From: Squalus acanthias
Lineage: Eukaryota
Assembly (NCBI GenBank): GCA_030390025.1
Contig: JASTWF010000033.1
Coordinates: 3,226,001-3,290,000, forward strand
Length of the DNA stretch: 64,000 bases
Direction of reading: 5' to 3'
The position numbers and the translations under genes are program-made. The notes under the pieces are model-generated. The model saw only the letters and a program-made list of their open reading frames with translations. It searched no databases and was not told the origin of the DNA. Position 1 is the stretch's first letter, and every line of letters starts with the position of its first letter. Shown here one piece after another: positions 6,922 to 50,677 of this stretch.

Positions 6922-6940
6922 ATTTTTGTCTTTTGATCAG

Positions 6941-7345
6941 GGCTGTGTGTGGGATCTTGCTGTGCCCACAGTGCTGTGTGTGGGATCTTGCTGTGTCCAC
7001 AGTGCTGTTTGTGGGATCTTGCTGTGTCCACAGTGCTGTGTATGGGATCTTGCTGTGCCCACAGTGCTGTGTGAGGGATCTTGCTGTGCCCACAGTGCTG
7101 TGTGTGGGATCTTGCTGTGTCCACAGTGCTGTGTGTGGGATCTTGCTGTGCCCACAGTGCTGTGTGTGGGATCTTGCTGTGCCCACAGTGCTGTGTGTGG
7201 GATCTTGCTGTGCCCACAGTGCTGTGTGTGGGATCTTGCTGTGCCCACAGTGCTGTGTGTGGGATCTTGCTGTGCCCACAGTGCTGTGTGTGGGATCTTG
7301 CTGTGCCCACAGTGCAGTATTTGGGATCTTGCTGTGCCCACAGTG
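6941..7345 (+). repeat. 31-bp minisatellite, 13 copies (GTGCTGTGTGTGGGATCTTGCTGTGCCCACA)
   Basis: gggatcttgctgtg recurs every 31 bp from 6951 to 7323. Confidence 0.97.
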
Positions 7346-7379
7346 CCTGCCGCTTTTCTTGGAGTGAGCTCCCTTCACA

Positions 7380-14329: not shown

Positions 14330-15200
14330 ATATGGGGGTCAGTAGCAACTGAATGAGAACAACGAACCTACCACAGGCCTGGAATGGAGCCTTGACCCAT
14401 CCATCTGTGTGGGGCTCAGTTACATGCTGGATGAGATCAGCAAACTGAGCGCTGTCCGGGAACGGAGCCTGATCACACCCTGCTCTGAGTGGCTCCACTG
14501 GGTGAGAACATCAGCACTGGTCAGATATGGAGCCTGGGCCCTTCCTACTCTGTGGGGCTCAGTAACACATTGCTTGAGATGGAGTAACACACCACAGGCC
14601 GGGGATGGAGCCTGGGCCCTTCCTAATCTGTGGGGCTCAGTAATACACTGCTTGAGATGGAGTAACACACCACAGGCCGGGGATGGAGCCTGGGCCCTTC
14701 CTACTCTGTGGGGCTCAGTAACACACAGCTTGAGATGGAGTAACACACCACAGGCCGGGGATGGAGCCTGGGCTTTCCCTGTTCTTTGTGGGGCTCAGTA
14801 ACACACTGCTTGAGATGGAGTAACACACCACAGGCCGGGGATGGAGCCTGGGCTTTCCCTGTTCTTTGTGGGGCTCAGTAACACACTGCTTGAGATGGAG
14901 TAACACACCACAGGCCGGGGATGGAGCCTGGGCTCTTCCTACTCTGTGGGGCTCAGTAACTCATTGCGTGAGATGGAGTAACACACCTCAGGCCGGGGAT
15001 GGAGCCTGGGCTCTTCCTACTCTGTGGGGCTCAGTAACACACTGCTTGAGATGGGGTAACACACCAAACGCCGGGGATGGAGCCTGGGCTTTCCCTGTTC
15101 TTTGTGGTGCTCAGTACCACACCGCCTGCAATAAACTAACAGGCCTAAGGCCGAGTATGGAACCTGATTACATTCTGTTGTGTGGGGCTCAGTACCACAC
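14330..15200 (+). repeat. 78-80 bp minisatellite, about 8 homogeneous plus 3 diverged units
   Basis: tgtggggctcagta recurs at 14551, 14629, 14707, 14787, 14867, 14945, 15023, 15103, 15181. Confidence 0.95.
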
Positions 15201-20260: not shown

Positions 20261-20326
20261 AGTTTCCCGCCCGGGATTGAATCGGGGCTTGTGAGGGGAA
20301 CTTGATAAACACTACACTACGGAAAC
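20261..20326 (-). pseudogene. tRNA-Val remnant with internal deletion (second Val 3' remnant at about 20222-20250)
   Basis: Reverse complement gtttccgtagtgtagtgtttatcaagttcccctcacaag. Confidence 0.7.
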
Positions 20327-20620
20327 CTCTGCTTAGCTGAATATCCAGAAAGATCTGTTCAGCGAGAAGGTGAAATGCTGAATCCCAGATTCTGGATTAA
20401 TTTCCTTTCACTAACATTTCTCCGACCGAACCTGCACAAGTCAAAAATGTTCCTTTCAAAGTCATTAAACTCTCGAATTTCCGCGTCGCCACCCAAATCT
20501 TCTGAATCAGATGCCTCCAGTTTTGCCACTCAATCAATGTCCCTTTGCAATTCCCTGCTCCCATCCACACTAATTACTGCGCCACTGTCGATCAGCGATA
20601 ATAGACATTCAAAGTGATCA

Positions 20621-20674
20621 GGCCGGCGAGTTCAGTCGGCAGCAGGTTCGTGGGTTCGGACCCCAAGTTAGGCG
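20621..20674 (+). pseudogene. tRNA-Lys, anticodon arm deleted
   Basis: ggccggcgagttcagtcggcag joined to caggttcgtgggttcggaccccaagttaggcg; paralog of 31192. Confidence 0.75.
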
Positions 20675-21139
20675 AAGGTTATTGTTAAACTTTTTGTTTG
20701 TTGCTTTCACGGCAAATCATCATGAATTCACCGGTAATTTTCTTTGGCACAATGAAAGAAATGCTAACTGAGGGAGAGTCGATACTTCAATCATTTTATT
20801 TGTGCTTTGCACGTTAACTGTTACCCAGATCTCCTTTTACACACGGTACTTCAGGAGTCTGGTTTAAAGTGTTCATTGCTGATGACACCAGGAATCTGGG
20901 GCAATATTTGTCAAATTGAACAGCACCGGTTATTTCCACCGTGCTCAGAAAATAGAATCAGCAGTGAACATGAAATCCCATTGTGCTGACATTCAGATTC
21001 AACGCAGTCAGCTTTGAAATAAAGTGAAAGAATTTTACACTGAAAAGATTTGTAAGTAAGTATTTGGGCCTTTAAAAAAGTTTGTAGGAGCTGATTCCTG
21101 TTCATGTCACTTCTTCCTCTGTTGAATAAGAAAGGAGGG

Positions 21140-21200
21140 GTTTGACGTTGTCCAGACTGCACTGCGCCTGATGTTTGTGAGCTCATCCTTTATATTGAGC
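21140..21200 (+). promoter_or_regulatory. Upstream promoter of vault-RNA-like gene 1
   Basis: TGACGT half-CRE, TGCGCCTG, TATATT 30 bp before the RNA start; conserved at 31740-31795. Confidence 0.55.
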
Positions 21201-21220
21201 GGTTTCTCGCACTTTGACCG

Positions 21221-21314
21221 ACGTCATCTTTAGCTCAGCGGTTACCTCGCAGCACCAACTTAATTCTAATTTCGACGCCTGTCTCACCGCGGGCGCTGCC
21301 TGGCGTGTTTTTTT
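21221..21314 (+). ncRNA. vtRNA: Vault RNA-like gene, copy 1
   Basis: 5' CTTTAGCTCAGCGGTTACcTCG and 3' CCGCGGGCGCTGCCTGGC match the conserved vault RNA ends; terminal stem; T7 terminator. Confidence 0.8.
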
Positions 21315-21412
21315 GTCCTTTTCAATCCCCTTATTTTACACTGAAACAAATTGTAGCCGTGATTTTAATTTAGCACCTTTAACTGATTCAATAACCTATT
21401 CTTATCAGTAAG

Positions 21413-21443
21413 TGTAACCCGTGTTCGATTCCCGGTTAGGGAA
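21413..21443 (+). pseudogene. tRNA-Glu 3' remnant
   Basis: cccgtgttcgattcccggttagggaa; paralog at about 32027-32057. Confidence 0.6.
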
Positions 21444-23011
21444 GTAACTTTGACATCACCGTTTTTAATTAATTAAAGCGAATAAATAACATGCAACTAA
21501 TGTGAAAAAATTAAGAAATGTTTGAATCACCATTAATTAACTGATAACCTTCTTTTGCAGAATGATAAATAATATAATATGGTGACTGAGGGACAGTCGA
21601 GACTTCAGTCATTTAGTTTGCTCTTTGCATGTGCTGAACTGTTAACCCATATCTAATTTTACACATTGTAATTTAGGAGAATGGTTTAAAATGTTCATTG
21701 CTTGTGAGAGCAGGACTCTGGGGCAACTTTTGTTAAATTTAACAGGATCGGCTATTTCACAGAACAAAAATGCTCTGACATAATGTTTTCAGACCACACA
21801 CTGACCGAGTTTCTTAGGCCCAAAGTGGATGATCTGAATCTTGCCCACGTTAAACTCCATTAATCACAGTTCAGGGGAGATTTAATAGAACTGTTCAAAA
21901 TTATGGGGGAAACTGTTTCCACTGGCAGGAGGGTCAGTAGGGCTGTGGGGGAAGAGCAGCGGAGTGGAACTAATTGGATAGCGCTTTCAAAGATGCTGCA
22001 TCAATTGTTCATTTAAATCTGCGATTGATAGTTTTTTTTTAACCACAGGTATTAAGGAATAATTCAAGTCTGTGAGACATTTTATAATTGTTTCAATCAT
22101 CATTAATCAACCAACAACATTGTGTTGCTCACTGCAGGAATTGCTAACAAGTTTACTGGGTGACAGCCAAACTGCAATAAATTATTATAGAATCACAGAA
22201 TCATACAGCACAGAAGGAGGCCATTCGCCACATCGTGCCTGTGCCGGCTCTTTGAAAGAGCGAGCCAATTATTCCCACTCCCCAGCTCTTTTCCCGAAGC
22301 GCTGCAAGAGTTTCTTTTTCAACTTATTTCCCTTTTGAAAGTTAATATTGAATCTGCTTCCACTACCATGTCAGGCAGAAATATATTTACATCAATGTTA
22401 TCCAAGTCCCATTTCACACATTGATTTCCCTGCTTTGCATGTCATAAAATGTTATCCCTTCTCATTTTACACACTCTATTTTCGGAGTTTGCTTAAAATG
22501 TTCGATGCTTGTGACATCCACCCTTGTTAGATTTAAAAAGATTGCAGCCCCTTTCCTTGTTAATCTCTGCCCCAAAGTGCTGTTGATGCTCATTCGTTGA
22601 GTATATTCAAGGCTGAGATCGATGATTTTTGGACTGCAGTTGAATCAAGGGATATGGGGATAGGCAGGAAAGTGGAGTTGAGGTCGAAGATCAGCCATTA
22701 TCTGATTGAATGGCGGTACAGGCTCGGGGGGCCATAAGGCCGACTCCTGCTCCTAATTCTTTCGTTCTTATGTCCTTTCACAGCAGAGCAAACTCGCCCC
22801 TGGACATGTATAAGGAGCAAGTTCCAACAAAATGTTTCCGTGAACGTGATAGCTCCTGCACTGCAGAAACGTCTCCACTTTCAGTATCAGGTCTGAAGGA
22901 AATGTTCAGCGAGGAGGTGAAACGCTGAATCCCACTTTTCAGGGATGTCCCAAAGCGCTTCACAGTGGCGTGAAAAGAAATGACTTGCACTTAGTAATTA
23001 AATATAGGGAA

Positions 23012-23096
23012 TGTCAGTAAGAATGATTCGAAACCACGCCTCTCAAATGAAACTGCGAGGTGAACGCAGCGCCTTCGACCACTCGGCCAGCCTGAC
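23012..23096 (-). pseudogene. tRNA-Leu(CAG)-derived, anticodon loop mutated to tt-CAC-ct
   Basis: Reverse complement gtcaggctggccgagtggtcgaaggcgctgcgttcacctcgcag.. with long variable arm. Confidence 0.85.
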
Positions 23097-23741
23097 AGCT
23101 CCCAAACTAAATTGCAAGTTATCACTTCCACATTTAGAAAGTTTCAGTCCGGATGCTTGTTCAATGCTGCTTGAAGGCTCGGTGACCGGGATATCATCTC
23201 CCCCGGGGTGCTTCTGAGCCTGTGCTCGGTGTATGGGGAGGTTTGGCCCGGGTCCCTGGTATCTTGCAGCCCAGGATGGACAATAACCCTCTGAGCTCTG
23301 GAGCTGGGGAAGAGCGATAATTAACGGGTTTGTTTCCGCGTCTGAAATGCGGCTTAGATCTGATGATATTAACCGAGGCCGGGGCTGCGAGATGTTGCAT
23401 TTTGTTTCGGTTTAATCAGAGGAATATCCGCAGTCAGGAGCTGAAAAGGACTAAGAGCTGAAAAAACACAAGAACATTGATAAGAAATGTAAGCAATTGT
23501 GATAAACTCGAAAAGTGTTTTCTGGTAGTTTAGTGGTTTAATTGTTTTAATCACCATTCATTAACCGATAGAGTTGTTTTTGCAGAATGAAAGAGATGCT
23601 CACACTGAGGGACAGTCGAAACTTCAATAACTTAAATTGAATAATTTGCGAAACTTTATTCATTGATGAAGTTTTATCACCGATCTGATTTTACACACTG
23701 TGTATTAATTTATTTCACAGAAATAATACTCTCGAACATAA

Positions 23742-23815
23742 TGGTTCCGCCCGGGATCAAGCCGGGTGCTTTTTCGAGTGCAAGGTTAACGTGATAACCG
23801 CTACACTACGGAAAC
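23742..23815 (-). pseudogene. tRNA-Val-derived, degenerate
   Basis: Reverse complement gtttccgtagtgtagcggttatcacg..ggcggaacca. Confidence 0.8.
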
Positions 23816-24274
23816 CATTGGTTCACACTGCCTCCGGAAAGATCTGTTCAGCGAGAAGGTGAAATGCTGAATCCCAGATTCAGGATTAATTTCCCATCAC
23901 TAACATTTCTCTGATAAAAACTGCACAAGTCAAAAATGTTCCTTTCAAACTCATTAAAGTTCCGAAATTCCTTCTCCCGAATCTTCTGAATCAGATGCCT
24001 CTGATTTTGTCCACTCAATCTATGTCCCTTTGCAATTTCTGCTCCCATCCACACGACTTACTGTGTAACTAATTAGTGTCGTTAAACTTGGGAATATACG
24101 CATATAGAAGACTCTTGGATTACCTTTTATGTCAGCAGCCATTCTATTCTCATACACTCTCTTTCCCCTCTTATTTTCCTTTTCACATCTCAAATGAACT
24201 TTCTATATTTAGCCTGATTCTCAGATATATTAGGACAGTTGAAGTCTCCCATTATCACTGCTCTATAGTTCATA

Positions 24275-25815
24275 GTCATAGAGTCAAAACAGCATAGAAT
24301 GAGGCCATTCGGCCCATCGAGTTCGTGCTGGCTCTCTGTAGAGCAATCCAGTCAGTCCCATTCCCCCGCTCTCCCCGCAGCCCATCGAGTCCGTGCTGGC
24401 TCTCTGTAGAGCAATCCTGTCAGTCCCATTCCCCCTCTCTCCCCGCAGCCCATCGAGTCCGTGCCGGCTCTCTGTAGAGCAATCGGGTCAGTCCCATTCC
24501 CCCTCTCTCCCCGCAGCCCATCGAGTCCGTGCCGGCTCTCTGTAGAGCAATCCGGTCAGTCCCATTCCCCCGCTCTATCCCCGCAGCCCATCGAGTTCGT
24601 GCCGGCTCTCTGTAGAGCAATCCAGTCAGTCAAATTCCCCCGCTCTGTCCCCGCAGCCCTGCAGGTTTATTTCCCTCAAGTGCCTATCCAGTCTACACTT
24701 GAAAACATTGAGTGTCTCCGTTTCCACCACATCCGTCAGCAGCGAATTCCAGGTCCTCACCACTCGCTGCGTATTTTTTTTTCCTAACGACCCTCCTGTA
24801 TCTCTTGCCCAATAACTTAAATATGTGTCCCCTAGACCTTTTAACATCAACTAGTGGGAACATCCTTTCCCCGTTTAGCCTATCCAAACTCATTATAATG
24901 TTTTACACCTGTATCAGATCACCCCTCAACCTCCTTTGTCTTAAAATACTCCTGTGCCGCGCCTTGGGGCGTTTTATTATGTCAAAGGCGCTATATAAAT
25001 GCAAGTTGTTGTGGTTGTAATGAAAACAAATGCAGCTTCTCCAGCCTGTCCTTGTAGCTAAGATCCGCCATCACCGCGACCATTCTGGTAAATCTCCACT
25101 GCACCCTCTCAAGGGCCTTCACATCCGTCCTAAAATGTGGTGACCAGATCAGGACGCAGTACTCCAGTTGCGGCCTAACCATAACTTTATAAAGGTTCAG
25201 CATCACTTCTCTACTTTTGTACTCCATACCTCTATTTATGAAGCCCAAGATCCGATATGTTTTGTTAACAACTCCCTCCATATGTCCTGCCACCTTCTAG
25301 GACCTATGCACATTAAATCCCCGGTTCCTCTTTCCCTGCACACTCTTTAAAACTGTGCCATTATGTGTATATTGCGTCTCACTGTTCCTTCTGCCAAAAT
25401 GCATCACTTCATACTTCTCTGTATTAAATTCCATCTGCCACTTGTCTGCCCATTCTGCTAGCCTTTCTCTGTCCTGCTGCAGTCGATTGATATCATCCTC
25501 ACTGTTTGTTACACCCCCAAGTTTGGTGTCGTCTGCAAATTTAGAAATTCTACTCTGTATTACAATATCCAGGTCATTTATAAATATCACAAAAGCAATG
25601 GCCCCAGCACTGACCCTTGGGGAGCAACACTGTCTACCATCCTCCAGTGTGAAAAACAGCCATTTACCACAACTCGCTGTTTTCTATCCTTCAGCCAATT
25701 CCTGATCCAAGATGCCACTGACCCTGCTATTCCATCAGCCTCAATATTGTAAACCAGCCTTCTATGTGGTACTTTGTCAAACACCTTTCTAAAATCCATG
25801 TAGGCAACATCCATT
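24275..25815 (-). mobile_element. CR1 3' portion with a small L2/SINE-tail insert at about 24945-25020
   Basis: [16 protein letters not shown] motifs on minus strand. Confidence 0.88.
24312..24659. repeat. 68-70 bp tandem repeat, 5 copies, derived from CR1 3' UTR
   Basis: gcccatcgag at 24312, 24380, 24448, 24516, 24586. Confidence 0.95.
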
Positions 25816-28675
25816 TGCATCAATTAGCTGCGCAAATAGATGTAAACAGATATGATATAATTGGGATTACGGAGGCATGGCTCCAGGGTGACCAAGGCTG
25901 GGAATTCAACATCCAGGGGTATTCAATATTCAGGAAGGACAGACAAAAAGGAAAAGGAGGTGGTGTAGCATTGCTGGTTAAAGAGGAGATTAACACAATA
26001 GTAAGCAAGGATATTAGCTCTGATGATGTGGAATCTGTATGATTAGAGCTGAGAAATACCAAGGGGCAGAAAAAGTTAGTGGGAGTTGTATACAGACCCC
26101 CAAACAGTAATGCTGAGGTTGGGGATGGCATTAAATGGGAAATGAGAGATACGTGCAATAAGGGCACAGCAGTTATCATGAGTGACTTTAATCTACATAT
26201 AGATTGAGCTAACCAAATTAGTAACAATACTGTGGAGGAGGAATTCCTAGAGTGTATACGGGATGGTTTCCTGGACCAATATGTCGAGGAACCAACAAGA
26301 GATCAGGCCATCTTCGACTGGGTATTATGTAATGAGAAAGGATTAATTAGCAATCTTGTTGTGTGAGGTCCCTTGGGGAGGAGCGATCATGATATGATAG
26401 AATTCTTCATTAAGCTGGAGAGTGAAGTAGTTGACTCAGAGACTGGGGTCCTGAATTTAAATAAAGGAAACTATGATGGTATGAGGCGCGAGTTAGCTAG
26501 GGTGGATTGGGGAGCGTTACTTAAAGGGTTGACGGTGAATAGGCAATGGCAAACATTTAAAGATCGCATGGATGAACGACAGAAATTGTTCATCCCTGTT
26601 TGGCTTAAAAATAAAAGAAAAAGGTGACTCAAACGTGGCTAACAAGGGAAATTAGGGATAGCATAAGACCCAAGGAGAGGACATATAAATTGGCCAGAAA
26701 AAGCAGCAAACCTGAGGATTGGGAGCAGTTTAGGATTCAGCAAAGGAGGACAAAGGGATTAATTAAGAGGGGGGGAAAAGAATATGAGAGTAAGCTTACA
26801 GGGAACATAAAAACTGACTATAAACGCTTCTATAAATATGTGAAGAGAAAAAGATTGGTGAAGTCAAGCGTAGGTCCGTTGCAGTCAGAATCAGGGCAAT
26901 GTATAATGGGGAGCAAAGAAATGGCAGACCAATTAAATACTTACTTTGGTTCTGTCTTCAAAAAGGAGGACACAAATAAACTGCCAGAGATGTATTGGAA
27001 CATAGGGTCTAATGAGAGGGAGGAATTGAATGAAATCAGTATTTGTAGGGAAATGGTGTTCGGGAAATTGACAGGATTGAAGGCTGATAAATCCCCAGGG
27101 CCTGATATTCTACATCCTAGGGTACCTAAGGAAGTGGCCTAGAAAAAGTAGATGCATTGCTGCTCACCTTACAAAATCTATAGTTCTGGAACAGTTCCCA
27201 TGGATTGGAGGGTAGCTAATGTAATCGCACTATTTAAAAAAGGTGGTAAAGAAAAAACGGGGAATTTTCGACCGGTAAGACTGACATCGGTAGTGGGCAA
27301 AATGCTAGAGTCCATTATAAAAGATGAAATAGCAGAGCACTTGGAAAACAGTGACAGGTTCGGACAAAGTCAACATGGATTTACAAAAGGTAAATCATGC
27401 TTGACTAATCTACTGGAATTTTTTGAGGATGTAACTGGTAGAATAGATAAGGGAGAAACAGTGGATGTGGTGTATTTGGACTTTCAGAAGGCTTTCGATA
27501 AGGTCCCGCATAAGAGATTGGCGTGCAAAGTTAAAGCACATGGGATTGGGGGTAAGGTATTGATTTGGATAGAGAACTGGTTTGCAGACAGGAAGCAAAG
27601 AGTTGAAATAAATGGGTCTTTTTCTGAGTTGCAGGCAGTGACTAGTAGGGAACTGCAGGGATCGGTGCTAGGACCCCAGCCATTCACAATATATATTAAT
27701 GATCTAGACGAGGGAATTAGATGTAATATTTCTAAGTTTGCAGACGACACAAAGCTGGGTGGGCGTGTGTGCTGTGAGGAGGACGCAGAGAAACTCCAGT
27801 ATGATTTGGACAGGTTGGGTGATTGGGCAGATGCATGGCAGATGCAGTATAATGTGGATAAATGCGAGGTTATCCACTTTGGTGGCAAAAACAGGAAGAC
27901 AGATTATTATCTGATCGGCAATAGATTGGGAAAAGGGGAAGTGCAACGAGATCTTGGAGTCCTTGTGCACCAGTTGCTGAAGGTAAGCATGCAGGTGCAG
28001 CAGGCGGTTAAGAAGGCAAATGGTATGTTGGCCTTCATAACGAGAGGATTCGAGTACAGGAGCAAGGATGTCTTGCTGCAGTTGTACAAGGCCTTGGTGA
28101 GACCGCACCTTGAGTATTGTGTGCAGTTTTGGTTGCCTTATCTGAGGAAGGATGTTCTTGCCATGGAGGGAGTGCAGCGAAGATTCACCAGACTGATACC
28201 TGGGATGGCAGGAATGACGTATGAAGAGATATTGGGTCGATTAGGCTTATATTCGCTAGAGTTTAGAAGAATGAGAGGGGATCTCATTGAAACTTATAAA
28301 ATTCTAACAGGACTAGACAGACTAGATGCAGGAAGGCTGTTTCAGATGGTGGTGAGTCCAGAAGCAGAGGTCACTGTCTAAGGATAAGGGGTAAGTCATT
28401 TAGGACTGAGATGAGGAGGAATTTCTTCACCCAGAGAGTGGTGAACCTGTGGAATTCTCTGCCACAGAAGGCAGTTGAGGCCAATTCATTAAATATATTC
28501 AAGAAGGTGATAGATATATTTCTTAAGGCTAAAGGGATTCAGGGATATGTGGAGAATGCAGGGACAGGGTACTGAATTTGGATGATCTGCCATGATCTCA
28601 TTAAATGGCGATGCAGGCTCGAGGAGCCGAATAGCCTGCTCCTGCTCCTATCTTCTATGCTTCTATGCTTCTGTG
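25816..28675 (+). mobile_element. Long CR1 (endonuclease plus RT, several stops/frameshifts) with (CTTCTATG)n tail
   Basis: YDIIGITE, GGGVALL, SDH, KSPGPD, FADD motifs; ORF 27152-28381. Confidence 0.95.
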
Positions 28676-28769
28676 CAGACTTCAGCGAACATCCCCATTT
28701 CTGAACTTATTTTGGAGGGAAGGTAATTGATGAATCAACTGAAGATGGTTGGGCCTCGGACACTGCCCT

Positions 28770-29690
28770 GTCTAGGACCCTCGTGATTTTGAACACCTTT
28801 ATCAGATCTCCTCGCAAACTTCTCTGCTCTAAGCAGAACAACGACAGCTTCTCCAGTCTATCCACGTAAATAAAGTTCCTCATCCCCCGAAACATGCTTG
28901 TGAAACTTTTCTGCCTTCACATCCTTCCTAAAATGTTGTGCCCAGAATCCTCCACCTGAGGCCGAACCAATGATGTATAAATGTTTAGCATTACTTCCTT
29001 GCTTTTGTAATCTATGACTCTATTAATAAAGATGATGTGGAGATGCAGGTTTTGGACTGGGGTGGACAAATGTGAGAATTCGCACAACACCAGGTTATAG
29101 TCCAACAGCTTTATTTGAAATCAAAAACTTTCGAAGCGCTGCTCCCTCGTCAGGTGAAGTGAAGAAGGTCATCTGTCGAAGGAGCAGCGCTCCGAAAGCT
29201 TGTGGTTTCAAATAAAGCTGTTGGACTATAACCTGGTGTTGTGCGACTTCTCCCATCTATTAATAAAGCCAAGGATCCCATATGCCTTTTAACAGCCTTC
29301 TCAACTTGTCCCACCACCTTCAAAGATAGATCAATCTTTGGTAAATCCAGGTCACTCTGTTCCTGCACACGATTTAAAATTGTAGCATTTAGTTTATATC
29401 GCCTCAGTTCAATCTTCCGCCCAAAATGGATCACTTCACACTTCTCTGTTAAATTTCATCTGCTATTTCTCTGCCCATTTCACCACTCTGTAGATGTCCT
29501 CATGAAGTCTGTTACGTTCTGTCTCATTATTTAGTACATTTCTGAGTTTCCTGCTCTGCAAACTTTGAAATGATGCCCAGTATTCCCAAGTCCAGGTCAT
29601 TAATATATATCAAAAAGAGCAGTGATCCTAAAACCGACCCCTGGGGAACACCACTGTATAATTCCTTCCTGTCTGAAAACTAACCGTTCA
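28770..29690 (-). mobile_element. Old CR1 fragment, paralogous to 40207-40857
   Basis: IHFGRK..YVDRLEKLSLF remnants. Confidence 0.8.
29032..29255. mobile_element. Penelope-type inverted pseudo-LTR insertion with paired hammerhead cores
   Basis: About 75-bp inverted arms 29082-29157 and 29169-29245; 13-bp TSD TCTATTAATAAAG at 29019 and 29256; empty site at about 40455. Confidence 0.75.
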
Positions 29691-29774
29691 CCCCTATTTA
29701 CAATTAATACACGTGCACAGCATCGCACTCATTCTATAAACACCCATTTTACATGTAAACACCACACCCATATA

Positions 29775-30000
29775 CACAACAACAAAAACAACTTGCATTT
29801 ATATAGCGCCTTTAAAGTAGTAAATCGTCCCAAGGTGCTTCACAGGAGCGATTATCAGACAGAATTTGACACCGAGCCACATAAGGAGATATTAGGACAG
29901 ATGACTGAAAGCTTGATCCACGTGAAAGATTTTAAGGAGAGTCTTAAAGGAGGAAAGAGAGGCGGAGAGCTTTAGGGAGGAAATACCAGAGCTTAAGTCC
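29775..30000 (-). mobile_element. L2-type 3' end
   Basis: aacaacttgcatttatatagcgccttt tail signature. Confidence 0.65.
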
Positions 30001-30379
30001 TTGGCTCATACACCAACAGTTTATATTTGTACACGGCCTTGTTAGCAGTCCTGAATATTGTTTCCCGCCGCAAGTTTAATTGTTTTTCAGAAGCTGCTCG
30101 GCCTGTTGTGTATTTTGAGCAGTTTCCCAGTTTATTTCCCTGTGATGTGATGGTTGTGGGGGCTCGGTGCGTGTAATTGGATTTTCTGCAGTCCGCCGGC
30201 AGCAGGTGGTGAAAGCGGGCGTGAGACGGTGAGTGACAGGTGAGCGCTGCTTCTGATGCTGTCTGACACCCGCTGGGAGTGGGCGGGGATTTTAAAGCCC
30301 TTTCATTTGTCCAAGCCAGGAGAAATGAAACAGTGTTTGAGGAAGGTGCATATATACAAACATCCCCGTTTCCACTGTG

Positions 30380-30451
30380 GACCTCGTGTCGCAACGGTAG
30401 CGCGTCTGACTCCCGATTAGAAGGCTGCGGGTTCAAATCACGGCGGGGTCA
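30380..30451 (+). pseudogene. tRNA-Trp body with CCC anticodon
   Basis: gacctcgtgtcgcaacggtagcgcgtctga-ct-CCC-ga-ttagaaggctgcgggttcaaatcacggcggggtca. Confidence 0.88.
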
Positions 30452-31191
30452 CTGTTCTATTGGATAGTCCCGGAGTTAATATTTTCTTTGCTGTTTCACA
30501 ATAATCAGATCCTTGCTCTAAAGTCTGTCTCGCTGTTTCCCCAATGTCAGGGAGAGAAGCGCCTGATGCCCTCATGTATTTAATTTTACTATTCACAAAT
30601 ACAGTTATTCGTTCAAAATCAACCTGCAGGTGGCCACACATAGAATAAACAGAGCCAGAGAGACAGACAGAATCGGGAAACACCGGGAAATAGGCAAGAG
30701 ATGTTGACAAGCAGATGTTTCCGAGACCAGAACCTGTCATCATTGATGAAGAACTGGAGCCTGTCCCAAAAACTATCAACACAGAGCTGGATATACTGTG
30801 GTTTATAAAGATTGTTGATATTGCCAGCCCACCTGTCCTCTCTCGGCACTTGCTTCTACCCAAAGCCCTGAATAAAGTACATGATGTGGAGATGCCGGCG
30901 GATAAAGTAGGTAATGGCCTGGGGAGTGGATTACCTGAAGAAACTGAAGATAGGAACTCTGCTTCTCAGATTGCTGGAAAGATGCCGTAGTTTTGTGTCT
31001 AAAAGCGCTTTGCGATCAGAACATTGTCTGAAGCCCTGTGGTTAATGAAAGGGCTTTTGATGCTTGATTTTCTTACACACCTTGGAATACAGGAAAACCT
31101 GGTTCGTGGTTTGCAGAACAAGTTAAACCCCTGGAGCGGATCAAACAGGCGCCTGGCTGCAACCAGCGACACAGACGTTCAAAGTAATGAG

Positions 31192-31264
31192 GCCCGGCGA
31201 GTTCAGTCGGCAGAGTATGAGACTCTTAATTTCAGAGTCGTTGGTTCGAGCCCTAGGTTGGATG
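31192..31264 (+). pseudogene. tRNA-Lys(CTT), degenerate
   Basis: gcccggcgagttcagtcggcagagtatgagactcttaatttcag.. Confidence 0.85.
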
Positions 31265-31817
31265 ATAGCATTTTGTTAAAATTTTATGTTGCTTTCACGG
31301 GAAAGCTTCGTTAATTAACCGATAATCTTCTTTTGCACAATGAAAGAAATGCTTACTGAGGGAGAGTCGATAGTTCAATAATTTGTTTTGCACTTTGCAT
31401 GTTAACTGTTGCCCATATCTCATTTTACACACTGTACTTCAGGAGTCTGGCTTAAAAATGTGCATTGCTGATGACACCAGGAATCTGGGGCAACTATTGT
31501 CAAATTTAACAGGACCGGTTATTTCTACCGTGTACAGAAAATAGAATCAGTACTGAACATAAATCCCCATTGTGCTGAATTTCAGATTCAACGCAGTCAC
31601 CTTTGAAATAAAGGGAAATTATTTTACAATGAAAAGATTGGGAAGTAAGTGTTACTGGTATTTGTGCCTTTAATTAAAGGTTGTGGCATCTGACTCCCGT
31701 TCATGTTTCTTCTTCCTCTGTTGAATAAGAAAGTGGGAATGACGTTGACCAGACTGCACTGCGCCTGATGTGTGTGAGCTCATCCTTTATATTGAGCGGT
31801 TTCTCAGCATTTGACCG

Positions 31818-31908
31818 ACGTCAGCTTTAGCTCAGCGGTTACTTCGTGATACCCATTTAAAATTCTAAGCTCGAACCCTGTCTCACCGCAGGCGCTGCCT
31901 GGCGTTTT
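31818..31908 (+). ncRNA. vtRNA: Vault RNA-like gene, copy 2
   Basis: GCTTTAGCTCAGCGGTTACTTCG matches the remembered human vault RNA 5' motif; ACGTCAG/CTGGCGT terminal stem; TTTT terminator; TATATT at 31788. Confidence 0.85.
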
Positions 31909-32410
31909 ATTGTCATTTTCAACCCCCTTTTACACCGAAACAAATTGTAACGGTGATTTCAATTTTGCTGTTTGAGATTTTTAGAGGGCAACTTTAAACG
32001 ATTCATTGCCGATTCCTGTCAGCATTGCGACCCGTGTTCGATTCCCGGTTGTGGAATTAACTTTGATATCAACGTTTTTAATTAATTAATGCGAAGTAAT
32101 TTTATTAAATTACTAACATGCATCTAATGTGAAAAATAAGAATTGTTTTAATGAACATTATTGAACCAATAACTTCCTTTTGCAGAATGAAATATATTAT
32201 AATATGGTTACTGAGGGACAGTCAAAACTTCAGTCATTTAATTTGCTCTTTGCCTGTGCTGAACTGTTAACCTATATCTCATTGTATACATTGGATTTTA
32301 GGAGAATGGTTCAAAATGTTTATTGCTTGTGAGAGCAGGGATCTGGGGCAACTTTTGTTAATTTAACAGGACCGGCTATTTCACAGAAAAAAAAAATTCT
32401 CTGACATAAC

Positions 32411-33883
32411 ATGCATCCTAGGGTACTGAAGGAGGTGGCCCTAGAGATAGCGGATGCACTAAGTATGATTTTTCAGAATTCATTAGACTCGGGAACAGTG
32501 CCCATGGATTGGAGGGTAGCTAACGTTACCCCACTATTCAAAAAGGGGGATAGGGAAAAAGCAGGTAATTACAGACCTGAAAGCCTTACATCAGTTGTGG
32601 GCAAAATGCTGGAGTCCATCATTAAGGATGAAATAGCGGAGCACTTAGCAAATGGGGACAGGATAGGACAGAGTCAACATGGATTTACAAAGGCTAAATC
32701 GTGCTTGACTAATCTATTGGAATTTTTTGAGGGAGTAACTGGTAAAATAGATGGGGGAGAGCCAGTAGATGTGGTGTACCTGGACTTCCAAAAGGACTTC
32801 GACAAGGTCCCACATAAAAGATTAGCATGGAAAATTGAAGCTCTTGGGATAAAGGGGAAAGTATTGACGTGGATAGAGAACTGGCTGTCAGGTAGAAAAC
32901 AGAGAGTTGGAATAAACGGCTCATTTTCTGAATGGCAGGCAGTAACAAGTGGGGTACCACAGGGATTTGTCCTGGGTCCCCAGCTGTTCACAATTTACAT
33001 TAATGACCTGGATCAGGGAGTCGTTTGCAGCATTTCCAAATTTGCAGACGACACTAAACTAGGAGGGGGGGGGGTGGGCTCAGAGGAGGAGACCAGGAAG
33101 CTCCAGAGCGATTTGGACAGACTGGGTGATTGGGCGGATAAATGGCAGATGCACTATAATGTGGACAAGTGCGAAGTTATCCACCTTGGGTGCAGGAACG
33201 GGAGGGGAAATTATTATTTAAATGACAATAAATTGGGAGAGGGGGAAGTACAGAGAGACCTGGGTGTTCTTGTACACCAGTCACTGAAGGCGAGCATGCA
33301 GGTGCAACAGGCGGTCAAGAAGGCAAACAGTATGCTGGCCTTCATAGCAAAAGGGTTGGAATACAGGAACAGGGATACCTTGCTGCAGCTGTACAGGGCA
33401 CTGGTGAGGCCACACCTCGAGTACTGTGTACAGTTTTGGTCGCCTCATCTGAGGAAAGATGTTCTTGCCATGGAGGGGGTGCAGCGGCGATTCACCAGGC
33501 TGATACCAGGAATGGCGGGATTGACCTATGAGGAGAGACTATGTAGTTTAGGGATGTACACACTGGAGTTTAGAAGATTGAGAGGGGACCTCATAGAAGT
33601 GTATAAAATTCTGACAGGTCTAGACAGACTAGATGCAGAAGGAATGTTTCCCTTGGCGGGTGAGAACAGAACTAGAGGACATAATTTAAGGATAAGGGCT
33701 AAACCATTTAGGACAGAAATGAGGGGGAATTTCTTCACTCAGAGGGTGGTGAACCTGTGGAACTCATTGCCACAGAGGGCAGTGTACGCCAGCTCATTAA
33801 ATATATTTAAGAGGGAATTAGATATATTTCTACAGGCAAAAGGGGTTAAGGGTTACGGAGAGAAGGCGGGGACGGGATACTGA
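32411..33883 (+). CDS. CR1 ORF2 RT, uninterrupted 490 aa in a young 5'-truncated copy (element about 32410-33985)
   Basis: Complete RT motifs, 3' UTR and (TATCTATG)n tail; empty site at about 21780. Confidence 0.92.
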   Translation: MHPRVLKEVALEIADALSMIFQNSLDSGTVPMDWRVANVTPLFKKGDREKAGNYRPESLTSVVGKMLESIIKDEIAEHLANGDRIGQSQHGFTKAKSCLTNLLEFFEGVTGKIDGGEPVDVVYLDFQKDFDKVPHKRLAWKIEALGIKGKVLTWIENWLSGRKQRVGINGSFSEWQAVTSGVPQGFVLGPQLFTIYINDLDQGVVCSISKFADDTKLGGGGVGSEEETRKLQSDLDRLGDWADKWQMHYNVDKCEVIHLGCRNGRGNYYLNDNKLGEGEVQRDLGVLVHQSLKASMQVQQAVKKANSMLAFIAKGLEYRNRDTLLQLYRALVRPHLEYCVQFWSPHLRKDVLAMEGVQRRFTRLIPGMAGLTYEERLCSLGMYTLEFRRLRGDLIEVYKILTGLDRLDAEGMFPLAGENRTRGHNLRIRAKPFRTEMRGNFFTQRVVNLWNSLPQRAVYASSLNIFKRELDIFLQAKGVKGYGEKAGTGY

Positions 33884-35180
33884 ATTGGATGATCAGCCAT
33901 GATCTCATTAAATGGCGGAGCAGGCTCAAAGGGCCGGATGGCCTACTCCTGCTCCTATCTTCTATGTATCTATGTATCTATATGTATAATGTTTTCAAAC
34001 CATACACTGACCGATCATTCTTAGGCCCCAAGTGGTTGATCTGACACTTGCCCACGTTGAACTCCATTAATCGCTGTTCAGGGGAGATTTAATAGAACTG
34101 TTCAAAGTTATGGGGGAAATTGTTTCCACTGGCAGGAGGGTCAGTAGGGCTGTGGGGGAAGAGCAGCGGAGTGGGACTAATTGGATAGCTCTTTCAACGA
34201 TGCTGCATCAATTGTTCATTTTAATCTGCGATTGATAGATTTTTGTTAGCGAAAGGTATTAAAGGATAATTCAAGTCTGTGAGACTCCTTATAACTGTTT
34301 CAATCATCATTAATCAACACACAACATTGTGTTGCTCACTGCAGGAATTGCTAACAAGTTTACTGAGTGACAGCCAAACTTGAATATCCTTTTATAGAAT
34401 CATAGAATCATACAGCACAGAAGGAGGCCAATCGGAAAATTATTCCCACTCCCCAACTCTTTTACAAAGCCCTGCAAGTGTTTCTTTTTCAATTTCTTTC
34501 CCTTTTGAAAGTTAATATTGAATCTGCTTTTACCACCCTGTCAGGCAGAAAAATGTGTACATCAATGTTATCCAAGTCCCATTTCACACAGTGATTTCCC
34601 TGCTTTGCATGTCATGAACTTTCATCCCTTCTCATTTTGCACACTCTATTTTAGGAGTTTGTTTAAAAATGTTCGATGCTTGTGACGTCAGCCATTGCTA
34701 GATTGAAAAGGATTGTAGCTCCTTTCCTTGGAAATCTCTACCCCAAAGTGCTGTTGATGCTCATTCGTTGAGTATATTCGAGGCTGAGATCGATAGATTT
34801 TTGGACTGCAGTGGAATCAAGGGAGTTGGGGATAGGCAGGAAAGTGGAGTTGAGGTCGAAGATCAGCCATTATCTGATTGAATGGCGGTGCAGGCTCGGG
34901 GGGCCATAGGGCCTACTCCTGCTCCTAATTCTTTCGTTCTTATGTTCTTATGTCCTTTCACAGGAGAGCAAACTCGCCCCTGGACCTGCATGAGGAGCAA
35001 GTGCCAACAAAATGTTTCCGAGAAAGTGATACCTCCTACACTGCAGAAACGTCTCCACTTTCAGTACCAGGTCTGATGGAAATGTTCAGCGAGCAGGTGA
35101 ACCGCTGAATCGCACTTTTGAGGGACTTCCCAAAGCGCATCACAAGAAATGTGTTGCCCTTAGTAATTAAATATAAGCAA

Positions 35181-35263
35181 CGTCAGAATTGGGATTCGAG
35201 CACACGCCTTCAGCGAAGGCTGTGACCTGAACGCTGCGTCTTAGACCGCGCCGCCAACCTGAC
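35181..35263 (-). pseudogene. tRNA-Leu(CAG), degenerate
   Basis: Reverse complement gtcaggttggcggcgcggtctaagacgcagcgttcaggtcacag..; paralog of 23012. Confidence 0.85.
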
Positions 35264-35908
35264 TGTTAGAACATGGACTTGTAACTTGTCACTTCCGCAT
35301 TTAGAAAGTTTCAGTCCGGGTGCTTGTTCAATGCTGCTCGAAGGCTCAGTGACCGGGATATCATCTCCCCCGGGGTGTTTCTGAGACTGTGCTCGGTGTA
35401 TGGGGAGGTTTGGCCCGGGCCCGTGGTATCTTGCAGCCCAGGGATGGACAATAACCCTGTGAGCTCTGGAGTTGGGGAAGAGCGAGTAATTAATGGGTTT
35501 GTTTCCGCGTCTGAAATGCGGCTTCGATCTGCTGGTATTAACCGAGGCCGGGGCTGCGAGATGTTGCATTTTGTTTAGGTTTATTCAGAGGAATATCCTT
35601 GTCAGGAGCTGAAAAGGACCAAGAGCTGAAAAAACACAAGACAAAAGATAAGAAATGTAAGCAATTGTGATAAACTGTTTAAAGTGTTTTCTGGTAGTTT
35701 CGTGTTTTAATTGTTTTAATCACCATTCATTAACCGATAGCGTTGTTTTTGCAGAATGAAGGAAATGCTCACACTGAGGGACAGTCGAAACTTCAATAAC
35801 TTAACTTTAACAATGTGCTCAACTTTATTCATTGATGAAGTTTTATCCCCATCTCAATTTACACTTTGTGTATTAATTTCTTTCACAAAAAATATGCTCT
35901 CGGAAATT

Positions 35909-36522
35909 GGGCTGAATATTCCGATCCCTTCGGGTGAGTAGGCGCTGTGTACACACAGCAGGGACATCAAAAAATGTCGGGGTCAGGCATGCGAATCGCA
36001 TGCGCTGAAAACCGGCATTTCCGATCTGATCACTTAACAATACTTTAAAAAAAATTAAGTTTATTTTTAGCCGCGTAAAAAACTTTAATTATTTTGTTCA
36101 AAAAATTAAATTTTTGTTAAAATATTTAATTTATTGTAATTTCAAATAATTTAAAAAAATTGGTTTTAAAAAAATATATTTAACGTGATTTAAAAAAAAA
36201 TAACGTGATTTAAAAAAAATATTTAACTTTTTACTGTGTTTTTGGTCTGATCTCCATACCTATATTTGTCAGGTCTATCTGTCACGTGCATGAAGGGAGA
36301 TTCTCTTCTTTGATGAGTTCCCCAAGATCCCAGGGTCGCTTGGAAACCGCAAGAACCTCAGGGATACATGGGCCCTGCACATTTCGAGTTGGCAGAGGCC
36401 CAGGAGCGGAAATGTCCGGACCTCCGGAGCTCTGAGGTAAGTCTGTAGATTTGATTTCCCGATTGGCGTTCTCCACACGCAGGAACTCTCCGATCGGAAA
36501 ATTGGGCTCAATGTTTCGGCCC
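35909..36522. mobile_element. MITE-like non-autonomous DNA transposon
   Basis: Imperfect TIRs GGGCTGAATATT / AATGTTTCGGCCC, AT-rich core, absent from paralog at about 23735. Confidence 0.6.
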
Positions 36523-36584
36523 AGCATTGAACCGTGGACTTTTTGCGTGTAAGGTAAACGTGATAACCGCTACATTACGTAAAC
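36519..36584 (-). pseudogene. tRNA-Val(TAC), 3' end disrupted by the MITE
   Basis: Reverse complement gtttacgtaatgtagcggttatcacgtttaccttacacgcaaaaagtccacggttcaat. Confidence 0.8.
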
Positions 36585-37107
36585 CTCTGATGCACATAGC
36601 ATCCAGAAAGATATGTTAAACGACAAGGTGAAATGCTGCATCCCAGTTTCTGGATTAATTTCCTATCACTAACATTTCTCTGACCGAAACTGCGCAAGAC
36701 AAAAATGTTCCTATCAAACTCATTAAACTCCCGAATTTCCTTCTCCCGAATCTTCTGAATCAGATGCCTCTAGTTTTGACCACGGAATCTATGTGCCTTT
36801 GCAATTTTCTGCTCCCAGTCACACTACTTACTGTGCCACTAACTTAGTGTCGTTAAACTTGGTAATATACACCTATAGAAGACTTTTGGATTACCTTTTA
36901 TGTTAGCAGCCATTCTATTCTCTTACCCTCTCTTTCCCCTCTTATTTTCCTTTTCAATTCTCCTCTGAGCTTTCTATATTTAGACTGATTATCAGATATA
37001 TTAGGATAGCTGAAGTCCCCGATTATCACTGCTCTATAGTTCATAGTCATAGATTCATAACGGCACAGAAGGAGGCCATTCGGCCCATCGAGTCCATGCT
37101 GGCGTTC

Positions 37108-38355: not shown

Positions 38356-39072
38356 GCAATCCAGTCAGTCCCATTCCCCCCGCTCTGTCCCCGTAGCCCA
38401 GCAAGTTTATTTCCCTCAAGTGCCCATCGACTCTCCAGTTGAAAACTTTGAGCGTCTCCGTTTCCACCACTTCCGTCGGCAGCGAGTTCCAGGTCCTCAC
38501 CACTCGCTGCGTAAAATAGTTTTGCTCACATTCCCCCTGTATCTCTTGCCCCAAAACCTTAAATCTGTGTCCCCCAGTCCTTGTACCATCAACTAGTGGC
38601 AACAGCCTTTCCCCGTCTTGCCTATCCAAACTCATCAGAATCTTGTCCACCTCTATCAAATCACCCCTCAACCTCCTTTTTCTTAAAATACTCCTATGCA
38701 GCGCATTGGGACGTTTTACTACGTTAAAGGCGCTATATAAATAAATGTTGTTGTTGTAATGAAAACAAATGCAGCTTCTCCAACCTGTCCTTGTAGCTAA
38801 GATCCCCCATCCCCGGAAACAATCCGGTAAATCTCCACTGCACCCTCTCAGGGGCCTGCACATCCTTCCTAAAGTGTGGTGACCAGAACTGGACGCAGGT
38901 GGTGAAAGCGGGCGTGAGACGGTGACTGACACGTGAGCGCTGCTTCTGATGCTGGCTGACACCCGGTGGGAGTGGGCGGGGATTTTAAAGCCCTTTAATT
39001 ACTCCAAGTCAGGAGAAATCAAACAGTGCTTGAGAAACTTGCATATATACAAACATCGCCGCTTGCATTGTG

Positions 39073-39144
39073 GACCTCGTGGCGCAACGGTAGCGCGTCT
39101 GACTGCAGATCAAAAGGCTGCGTGTTCAAATCACGGCGGGGTCA
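39073..39144 (+). tRNA. tRNA-Trp body with GCA (Cys) anticodon
   Basis: gacctcgtggcgcaacggtagcgcgtctga-ct-GCA-ga-tcaaaaggctgcgtgttcaaatcacggcggggtca; A and B boxes intact. Confidence 0.88.
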
Positions 39145-39598
39145 TTGTTCTATTGGATAATCCCGGAATTAATATTTTCTTTGCTATTTCACAATAATCA
39201 GAAACTTGCACCAAAGACTATCTCACTGTTTCCCCAGTGTAAGGGAAAGAATCGCCTGAATGCCTCATTTATTTAATGTGACAAGACACAAGCACAGGTA
39301 TTCGTTCAAAATCAACCTGCAGGTGGCCACACACAGAGTAAACAGAGCCAGCGAGACAGACAAAATCGGGAAACACCGGGAAATAGACAAGAGACATTGA
39401 CAAGGAATAAAAGCTCTTTGCGATCAGAAAATGCCTGAAACCCTGTGGTTAATGAAAGGGTTTTTGATGCTTGATTTCCTTACACACCTTGGAATTCAGG
39501 AGAACCTGGTTCGTGGTTTGCAGAACAAGCTGAAACCCTAGGGCGGAGCCAACAGGCGCCTGGCTGCAATCAGAGACAAGGACGCGCTAATTTATCAG

Positions 39599-39673
39599 GC
39601 CCGGCTTGCTCAGTCGGTAGAGCCTGAGACTCTTAATCTCAGCGTCGTGGGTTCGAGCCCCAATAATTGGGCG
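39599..39673 (+). tRNA. tRNA-Lys(CTT), 2-nt insertion near 3' end (probable pseudogene)
   Basis: gcccggcttgctcagtcggtagagcctgagactcttaatctcag..gggttcgagcccc. Confidence 0.88.
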
Positions 39674-39889
39674 AATGCTGTTTGTTAAACATGTATGCTG
39701 CTTCCACGGGAAAGCGTCATTAATTAACCGATAACCTTATTTTGCCCAATGAAAGAAATGCTAACTGAGGGAGAGTCGATATACAATAATTTAATTTGTG
39801 CTTTGCATGTTACCCATATCTCATTTTGTCAAATTGAACATGATCGGTTATTTCTACAGTGCACAGAAAATAGAATCAGCAGTGAACAT

Positions 39890-49700: not shown

Positions 49701-49950
49701 ATTGATTAGAAAACTGGTTTCCATTGCCTGCTGTGCCAATTTACTGCTACTGCAGTGTAACATTGTTTTACTCTTCTTAAACCAACAGAATCCCCAATAG
49801 TTAACTTTTCCCCTTCACTTAAACTGCTTAAGTACTCTTATCAAGAATGATTTAAAGAGAACTAACAATTAAAGAACTACTCCCACTTACCCAAACTCAC
49901 AGCACTCTCTGCTGACTTGCACTCAGTGCTGGCTCGCACTCACACTGGTC
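46749..49950 (-). mobile_element. Near full-span CR1 with 5' UTR, ORF1 start and an internal ORF1/endonuclease deletion
   Basis: ORF1 start MAGNLGTVSCSSCAMWE at about 49531; junction GNDLPGEG|TMVEEDFLEC at about 49205; tail at 46749. Confidence 0.92.
46849..48528 (-). CDS. CR1 ORF2 reverse transcriptase (open segment, 559 aa)
   Basis: All RT motifs present with no stops. Confidence 0.92.
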   Translation of the reverse strand: MGNKEMADQLNKYFGSVFTVEDTNNLPEIKEIKGSGKREELREFLISREKVLGKLMGLKADKSPGPDGLHPRVLKEVALEIVDALTIIFQHSLDSGSVPKEWRVANVTLLFKKGGREKAGNYRLVSLTSVVGKMMESIIKDVITDHLESGDMIGPSQHGFVKGKSCLTNLLEFFEDVSNRVDGGGREPVDVVYLDFQKAFDKVPHKRLVCKVKAHGIGVNVLMWIENWLAHRKQRVGVNGYFSEWQAVTSGVPQGSVLGPQLFTLYINDLDEGINCNISKFADDTKLGGSVNNEEDARRLQSDLDRLGEWANVWQMKYNVDKCEVIHFGGKNREADYYLNVCRLGKGEVQRDLGVMVHHSLKVGRQVQQAVKKANGMMAFIARGFEYRSREVMLQLYRALVRPHLEYCVLFWSPNLRKDILAIEGVQRRFTRLIPGMARLTYQERLDQLNLYPLEFRRMRGDLIETSKILTGLDKLDAGRMFPILGKTKTRGHSLRIKRKPFKTEMRRNFFSQRVVNLWNSLQQKVVEASSLNIFKRELDIILTTREIKGYGEKAGIGY

Positions 49951-50046
49951 TTTTTTGATGTTGTTTAAGTTGAACCAACACATTCCCGATCAGTACGGAG
50001 GGAGTTCACTGATCAGTTCCCCTCTGTTGTAGCTGGCTCGCCAGCG

Positions 50047-50119
50047 GTTTCCGTGGTGTGGTGGTTATCACGTTCGCTTTACACGTGAAAGGTCTCCGGT
50101 TCAATCCCAGGTGGATTCA
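50047..50119 (+). pseudogene. tRNA-Val(TAC), acceptor and T stems degenerate
   Basis: gtttccgtggtgtggtggttatcacgttcgctttacacgtgaaagg..ggttcaatcc. Confidence 0.85.
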
Positions 50120-50604: not shown

Positions 50605-50677
50605 GTTTCCGGTGTGTAGTGAGTATCGCAGTCCGCTAACACACGACAACTCAGCGGTTCGAAAGTGGGTAGAGGCA
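50605..50677 (+). pseudogene. tRNA-Val(AAC), heavily degenerate
   Basis: gtttccggtgtgtagtgagtatcgc..ctaacac..ggttcgaaa. Confidence 0.65.

Follow-up and report, generated by a model that had tools for sequence, protein, structure and literature searches.

About 240 vault RNA gene copies in tRNA clusters of Squalus acanthias, in addition to the ZMAT2-protocadherin locus

Results

Two vault RNA genes in the window

We have analysed a stretch of 64,000 nucleotides of the Squalus acanthias genome (GenBank assembly GCA_030390025.1, contig JASTWF010000033.1, positions 3,226,001 to 3,290,000; hereafter the window), which carries two vault RNA genes, copy 1 and copy 2, amid remnants of tRNA genes (Table 1). 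Both had been called vault RNA-like in a prediction made from the letters alone, and this identity was borne out by the Rfam covariance model RF00006 (Vault), whose gathering score is 34 bits. Copy 2 matched at 31818-31909 with 58.9 bits (E 1.1e-10) and copy 1 at 21221-21310 with 45.8 bits (E 5.3e-7), the whole model being covered in both cases. When the sequence was re-read, the positions and motifs of the two copies were those given in the original prediction. Scanning the window with RF00006 and with a profile built from family members revealed no third vault copy.

The B boxes of both window copies are mutated relative to the family motif GTTCGAACC, and each copy breaks one or two pairs. 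In copy 1 the damage lies in the terminal stem, and its T7 terminator (21308-21314) is displaced by 2 nt, with one G between stem and T7. In copy 2 a G>A change in the 3' core has cost one inner-stem pair; the gene retains a 7-bp terminal stem and ends with T4 at 31905-31908, the first T doubling as the last base of the stem. The two copies differ from each other at 2/29 sites in the 5' arm and 2/29 in the 3' arm, at 6/20 sites plus a gap in the loop, and at four of the nine B-box positions, the flanks differing at 41/397 and 41/305 sites. Both fold no better than shuffled sequences (z scores in Table 1), and two intact relatives gave z scores of -2.4 and -2.1. The motifs upstream of both copies are likely promoter elements of the CRE-like (cAMP response element-like) and TATA-like kinds, named here after those of PMC7058938.

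A family of about 240 copies

The genome searched comprised 3.71 Gb in 3882 contigs; contigs are labelled C1, C3, C19, C21, C26, C354, C460 and C526 where they must be told apart, and loci bear L-numbers. The 21-mer at the 5' end of the gene occurred exactly at 126 places and with up to two mismatches at 241, while the reversed 21-mer gave 0 matches. This supported the proposal of a large multicopy family, of about 240 copies. Since 46 of 47 copies that had been chosen independently, by their upstream sequence, carry the 5' 21-mer within two mismatches, the figure of 241 should be near the total of the dispersed type. The Vault model was applied to 49 candidates, and every one exceeded the Rfam cut-off. 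The B box and the 3' core were intact at 93 places in the genome, none of them on C3 (control, 0).

For the analyses below, 165 distinct copies on 47 contigs were used, plus four added later. Six large scaffolds hold 73 of the 165 copies and other contigs the remaining 92; the dispersed copies on large scaffolds number 63, on four of them. When 164 copies were clustered at about 99% identity over 800 bp, 125 clusters remained, so that assembly redundancy cannot account for the family. The cassette copies have a mean identity of 86%, and the 63 intact copies analysed give 37 distinct sequences. There is also a short subfamily (74-75 nt) that has lost most of the loop (L038:5000-5074, L045, L206, L211 and L217); one member scores 65.7 bits, and several retain the A box, the B box and the core. 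A search for Y RNA returned one match among 51 scored candidates.

An upstream 23-mer of the family has 393 matches genome-wide. A vault gene follows in only 47 of the 73 that were checked, and so this element is unusable as a vault gene count. The other 26 lie in tRNA-Val arrays that have no vault gene (C21:11.04-11.41 Mb, L184-L200; C354; C526; C460:954500-964499, L218). At six loci the entire vault promoter is fused at +1 to a tRNA-Val-like body, the junction falling at the A-box motif common to both; such fusions suggest ectopic recombination between genes transcribed by RNA polymerase III (Pol III). L182 and L183 (C354, C526) represent a tandem array whose 2531-bp unit bears divergent tRNA-Val(CAC) and tRNA-Val(TAC) genes.

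Usual locus and descent of the dispersed copies

The arrangement of the human VTRNA1 locus, ZMAT2-vault-protocadherin (PMC7058938, PMC7904556), is found here as well, with three vault genes at C3:198.718-198.724 Mb. They score 60.4, 52.5 and 51.5 bits, have fold z scores of -3.8, -3.0 and -1.8, and lie about 17 kb from the ZMAT2 exons and 38 kb from the first protocadherin exon. The protocadherin cluster itself, C3:196.65-198.68 Mb, contains 95 of the 106 protocadherin-domain matches; several of the 95 have stops or short frames. An exon of a protocadherin gene next to the vault source locus had its nearest full-length matches in cartilaginous fishes (58-68% identity, covering 97-100% of the query), and among the matches listed, those from other named vertebrates did not exceed 51%. 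Because the ZMAT2-protocadherin locus is still present, the copies in tRNA clusters are an addition to it and not a relocation. The link to the protocadherins is said to extend to jawed vertebrates in general, local expansions being no more than small (reportedly described by Stadler and colleagues in 2009).

Eight further vault copies, whose mutual identity averages 64%, lie inside the protocadherin cluster at C3:197.477-197.495 Mb; the vault search covered 600 kb of this locus of roughly 2.2 Mb, where more copies may exist. An early idea was that the ancestral locus was in decay and its function had passed to the cassettes, none of the eight passing all four strict motifs. It was dropped because three well-folding genes adjoin ZMAT2 and because the strict B-box test is too narrow, five of the eight keeping the core.

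The position of the B box had been regarded as atypical. Yet the spacer of 7-8 nt between B box and 3' core is also present in the three usual-locus genes, and the spacing is thus lineage-wide rather than a product of capture. One inner-stem pair separates old from dispersed copies: it is U-A in the three usual-locus genes and in four of the eight inside-cluster copies, and C-G in 136 of 155 dispersed copies.

The dispersed copies form a single clade, with a Shimodaira-Hasegawa (SH) support of 0.92 in a tree of 131 leaves, which left out four copies without upstream homology and two copies on C1, and with a bootstrap of 97 for seven representatives. This clade groups with the inside-cluster copies in trees drawn from this one genome. 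Five of the eight inside-cluster copies can be aligned to the cassette from -98 onward, and a putative upstream promoter of about 100 bp is common to dispersed and inside-cluster copies. One dispersed clade, closest to the inside-cluster copies and sharing their promoter, makes it likely that one gene moved as DNA.

The dispersed copies lie in duplicated tRNA cassettes

The original prediction also held that vault RNA genes had been captured in an amplified tRNA cassette, and the surroundings of the copies agreed with this. Of the first 146 copies, 136 lie outside C1 and C3, and 132 of these had a tRNA gene or tRNA relic within 2.4 kb, whereas tRNA-like sequence stood near none of the 10 copies on C1 and C3 and near none of 47 control tiles. 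The intact cassette, seen on C21, C26 and related contigs, consists of Leu(CAG), Lys(CTT) on the minus strand, Trp(CCA), Lys(CTT), the vault gene and Val(AAC) on the minus strand, in a repeat of about 16.5 kb. A second subfamily forms a 6.26-kb repeat at 99% identity, with 14 near-identical copies; this unit has an intact vault gene but has lost Lys, and its Val and Leu stand at 75-88%. The tandem units of 6.26 and 16.5 kb are 92-99% alike.

Flanking sequence is shared from -430 to +440 by 94 copies, up to -250 to +190 by 30, and partially by 12. Both window copies share the -430 to +440 segment with the family, where a short interspersed element (SINE) or a processed retrocopy would have no flanking homology. 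These shared flanks argue that the bulk of the family consists of duplicated DNA segments and not of retrocopies; a SINE reading is refuted for that bulk and applies only to three solitary copies.

Substitution rates and probable past transcription

We have compared parsimony changes per site in 46 distinct promoter-picked copies with base-class-matched flanks, using 3000 resamplings. This set replaced that of a first analysis, of 89 copies chosen through their 5' motif, whose 5' figures were set aside because of that choice. Relative to the flanks, change was raised 2.3-2.5x at -20 to -1, 2.8-3.0x in the loop and 2.5x in the B box, each value lying above all 3000 resamplings. The A-box arm stood at 0.75x (P low 0.13-0.14) and the 3' arm at 1.2x, and the upstream CRE-like and TATA-like motifs (0.97-1.06) were not conserved above background. 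The 36 copies that retain Lys allowed a comparison within the same cassettes: the vault gene gave 2.5x in the inner 5' flank, 0.82x in the 5' arm and 1.31x in spacer plus 3' arm, and tRNA-Lys gave 3.8x in the inner 5' flank and 1.39x in the body. According to PMC6130373, transcribed Pol III genes are recognizable by a raised rate of change in the inner 5' flank, and the vault pattern matches the one described there for active genes.

Three copies have no flanks of the family type. The two on C1 begin at nt +1 and are identical to cassette copies at 45/45 and 40/42 nt; the one on C19 also begins at nt +1 and resembles the inside-cluster type. They look like reverse transcripts, which would have required germline RNA. 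Together with the rate pattern, the cassette-type retrocopies point to past transcription of the family. A chimeric retro-insertion at one C1 site (L031:4640-5230, C1:248.9 Mb) consists of the initial 45 nt of a vault RNA of cassette type, with inverted 3' ends of a common repeat on either side.

State of the copies

The 47 promoter-picked copies kept the A box in 36 cases, the strict B box in 17, the core in 28 and the T run in 46. All four motifs are present in 11 of them, so that 36 fail at least one, and the B-box core is kept in 16. By sequence, roughly a quarter to two fifths of the copies still look competent. In 12 hand-picked copies, 94.7% of 246 cells are paired, versus 29-44% after sliding; covariation in these 12 copies was not above that of shuffles. 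Two subfamilies, compared through a single pair of copies both picked as intact, differ at 1/58 arm sites and by 10-13% in the flanks.

When copy 2 is set against an intact relative, 6/20 loop sites, 0/29 sites of the 5' arm and 8/337 downstream sites differ, a loop-biased change that is as expected if its lineage had been transcribed for some time. The two window copies belong to the damaged majority and are probably weak or silent and in decay.

Cassette units and other features of the window

Two cassette units surround the window copies (Table 1). The full order Trp-Lys-vault-Glu-Leu-Val, proposed for the cassette, holds for copy 2, in whose unit Leu and Val are on the minus strand. It fails for copy 1, where Trp is missing and a Val relic and a Lys stub of 32 bp lie upstream. 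Most tRNA neighbours of the window copies are decayed, and "Glu" is only a 3' remnant of about 30 nt. Self-BLAST revealed an extra repeat of about 1.6 kb in unit 2 relative to unit 1 (32410-33985), and a third, partial unit at 39009-39827 ends short of the vault gene.

Table 1. Features of the 64-kb window (positions counted from its first nucleotide)
Feature	Positions	Strand	Remarks
Vault RNA gene copy 1	21221-21314	+	Damaged: G7>T disrupts terminal stem, B box TTTCGACGC; RF00006, alignment, fold z -0.26
A box, copy 1	21231-21241	+	Intact; sequence and motif test
B box, copy 1	21270-21278	+	Three differences from intact relative, first G lost
Copy 1 upstream region, common to protocadherin-locus copies	21120-21220	+	TGACGT 21143-21148, TGAGCTCA 21178-21185, TTTATA 21189-21194
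Vault RNA gene copy 2	31818-31908	+	B box GCTCGAACC, rewritten loop; RF00006, alignment, fold z -0.31
A box, copy 2	31828-31838	+	Intact; motif test
B box, copy 2	31869-31877	+	Single change, T>C at position 2
Copy 2 upstream region	31720-31817	+	TGACGT 31740-31745, TGAGCTCA 31775-31782, TTTATA 31786-31791
Cassette unit 1	20593-24332	+	Self-BLAST: 81-87% to unit 2, in blocks
tRNA-Val-derived relic upstream of copy 1	20264-20326	-	
tRNA-Lys 3' stub (32 bp) upstream of copy 1	20643-20674	+	
tRNA-Glu-like 3' remnant behind copy 1	21416-21444, limits approximate	+	By-eye comparison with genuine Glu(CTC) gene
tRNA-Leu(CAG)-derived relic, unit 1	23012-23096	-	84%
tRNA-Val-derived relic, unit 1	23742-23815	-	
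Cassette unit 2	31164-37103	+	Part homologous to unit 1; Trp-derived gene further upstream
tRNA-Trp(CCA)-derived gene, unit 2	30380-30452	+	Anticodon now CCC; 93% to intact Trp gene
Decayed tRNA-Lys(CTT)	31192-31264	+	87% to intact gene; 24 bits, under tRNA cut-off of 29
tRNA-Glu-like 3' remnant (T arm), behind copy 2	32029-32057, limits approximate	+	By-eye comparison with genuine Glu(CTC) gene
tRNA-Leu(CAG)-derived gene, unit 2	35182-35263	-	
tRNA-Val-derived relic, unit 2	36512-36584	-	

Mutated anticodons (CCC, GCA, CCT, CGT, TCA and CTC) occur in cassette Trp and Lys genes, in the window at 30380-30452 and 39073-39144 and elsewhere at L015, L020, L023, L042 and L049. The Trp gene of L042, with a TCA anticodon, is a possible UGA suppressor and was labelled SeC by ARAGORN. 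Such anticodon-mutated cassette copies could inflate the counts of rare tRNA classes.

Elsewhere in the window, 49699-51449 and 51509-52726 constitute a recent local duplication (96-99%) bearing tRNA-Val(TAC)-like genes. A near-perfect inverted repeat of about 160 bp at 29083-29243 resembles a miniature inverted-repeat transposable element, and its matches to Rfam microRNA models were far under the cut-off; in the C354 array, related sequence stands after the promoter element. Positions 6938-7346, 14527-15122, 24312-24659 and 3-554 hold tandem arrays (31, 78 and 68 bp) as well as degenerate repeats rich in GA.

Discussion

Comparison with known systems

The RNA family described here is already known; the finding here is its expansion, alongside the usual locus, to about 240 copies within tRNA clusters. 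As in RF00006 vault RNA, we have found a full-length model match, A boxes and putative B boxes, paired ends, a variable loop and a T-run end, and the upstream CRE-like and TATA-like motifs are also those of the vault RNA genes in PMC7058938 and PMC7904556. This genome departs from known vault loci in having about 240 additional copies within tRNA clusters, distributed over many contigs and at least four large scaffolds, in having eight more copies inside the protocadherin cluster, and in a spacer of 7-8 nt between B box and 3' core. Rfam vault counts elsewhere are 9 in human, 2 in chicken and a median of 0 in 48 birds (PMC4378963), and 12 in killifish (PMC5584509). The human genes are listed as four vault RNA genes that are functional, plus two pseudogenes (PMC13404743). 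The processed pseudogenes VTRNA2-2P and VTRNA3-1P (PMC13404743, PMC7058938) are like our C1 and C19 copies in starting at nt +1 without upstream flank, whereas the window copies and most of the family retain promoter and kilobase flanks.

Sharks and rays are described as having abundant clustered tRNA loci and multiplied tRNA-Sec genes, with 37 copies in spiny dogfish (bioRxiv 10.1101/2025.06.08.657570). The likeness lies in large arrays with many decayed copies and in the multiplication of a normally low-copy Pol III gene; here, unlike in the tRNA-Sec case, the passenger is a Pol III gene that does not encode a tRNA and that has an upstream promoter of its own. The main text of that preprint does not contain the word "vault". 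We found no report of a comparable vault RNA expansion in the literature searched, although unseen supplements or genome annotations may already count such copies. A single metagenome match to the vault sequence, from one scan, was rejected as chance, lying in GC-rich bacterial-looking DNA.

Proposed history and its weak points

We consider it likely that the copies represent a birth-and-death family that rides on the duplication of tRNA clusters, is partly transcribed and is moderately constrained. Starting from the usual locus, copies would have arisen inside the protocadherin cluster, and a single DNA-level escape would then have placed one inside-cluster gene, copied together with its promoter of about 100 bp, in a tRNA cluster, where it multiplied along with the tRNA cassettes. 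Many copies would have been transcribed by Pol III, with TFIIIC binding the A and B boxes and the upstream CRE-like and TATA-like elements assisting, into RNAs of 74-91 nt that end at the T run. Births would occur by segmental and tandem duplication and deaths chiefly through mutation of the B box, a process that transcription itself would accelerate. Competent-looking copies would add to the vault RNA pool of the cell. Most likely, the expansion is a by-product of tRNA-cluster amplification.

Several observations weigh against this history. Support for any given inside-cluster copy as the donor is 18-61, and the date and direction of the move are read from one genome only. The arm rates are not significantly under background, that of the 3' arm being above 1, and constraint is therefore visible only relative to the loop. 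In the Lys-retaining copies, the Glu remnant gave 1.2x in its flank and 2.0x in its body, and the raised body makes the rate test less specific. Loop counts suffer from indels, gene conversion inflates tree parsimony, and RNA folding may itself shield stems from mutation (PMC4691750). The three usual-locus genes, too, fail the strict B-box pattern, which is a tRNA consensus; hence a failure to match it does not reliably mean a dead gene, and transcription of the window copies may persist. Three sequencing runs, none on record as RNA, were compared with an intact copy and copy 2 and gave contigs of depth 2-8 that span gene and flanks alike, a result that speaks neither for nor against expression.

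Alternative explanations

The near-background arm rates would suit dispersed copies that are silent pseudogenes in duplicated clusters, the intact-looking ones being merely young and the usual locus alone at work. Its three genes fold well and could supply all function, and many intact copies are near-identical (164 copies giving 125 clusters). Yet the raised rates at -20 to -1 and in the loop are mirrored in tRNA-Lys and absent before the Glu remnant, cassette-type retrocopies exist, and the arms of two subfamilies differ at one of 58 sites when their flanks differ by 10-13%, albeit in one pair with both members picked as intact. We regard complete silence as quite improbable. Spread of a vault-derived SINE by retrotransposition has very little probability: the three flankless copies begin at nt +1, one being fused to the 3' end of a common repeat, but most copies share their flanks, the tandem units are 92-99% alike, and copies are confined to a few regions. 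That the copy number is mostly an assembly artefact, from uncollapsed haplotypes on unplaced contigs, is barely credible; 92 of the 165 copies lie off the six large scaffolds, and near-identical twins exist for some of them, but the number of clusters, the 63 dispersed copies on four large scaffolds and the mean identity of 86% speak against it.

An adaptive expansion, in which selection favoured a high dose or a diverse repertoire and tRNA clusters offered open, Pol III-rich chromatin, appears rather unlikely. It could draw on the 93 places with B box and core retained and on the 37 sequences among intact copies, on the 6.26-kb unit that has kept its vault gene while its tRNA genes eroded, and on the compensated change of the inner-stem pair from U-A to C-G. 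The scarcity of Y RNA matches indicates that not every Pol III gene has multiplied, and MVP is known from an electric ray (PMC2150576). These points are countered by the 36 of 47 promoter-picked copies with at least one failed motif, by a B box that behaves as a mutation hot spot rather than a protected site, and by arm rates not below background. Moreover, the tandem-unit copies were found via the gene itself and represent one recent expansion, and Y RNA may just never have entered a tRNA cluster. In our own search, the MVP domains PF11978 and PF17794 had no match in the genome among three candidates each, which does not imply absence, since a multi-exon gene is easily missed; PF17795 gave six weak matches (E 0.47-7.4), and the two examined were unrelated near-identical repeats. 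The strongest form of the selective proposal is also unlikely in our view: about 90 competent genes of several subfamilies (74-91 nt, with different loops), highly expressed from tRNA clusters and selected for dose or repertoire beside the three old genes.

Significance

For other vertebrates, the vault counts that we found do not exceed a dozen genes, most of them linked to the protocadherin locus. In S. acanthias the steps of the proposed move are still readable, from the usual locus through the inside-cluster copies and one escape to amplification. The family amounts to an extensive set of natural mutants of a single vault RNA and predicts subfamily-specific RNAs. To our knowledge, the function of vault RNA is still open. 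Should the reading of selected, high expression be true, S. acanthias would offer the first natural vault RNA system of high dose and many variants, with which one could probe vault RNA function and the parts of the molecule that are key to it. More generally, the results suggest that, in cartilaginous fishes, other Pol III genes can be carried along when tRNA clusters are amplified.

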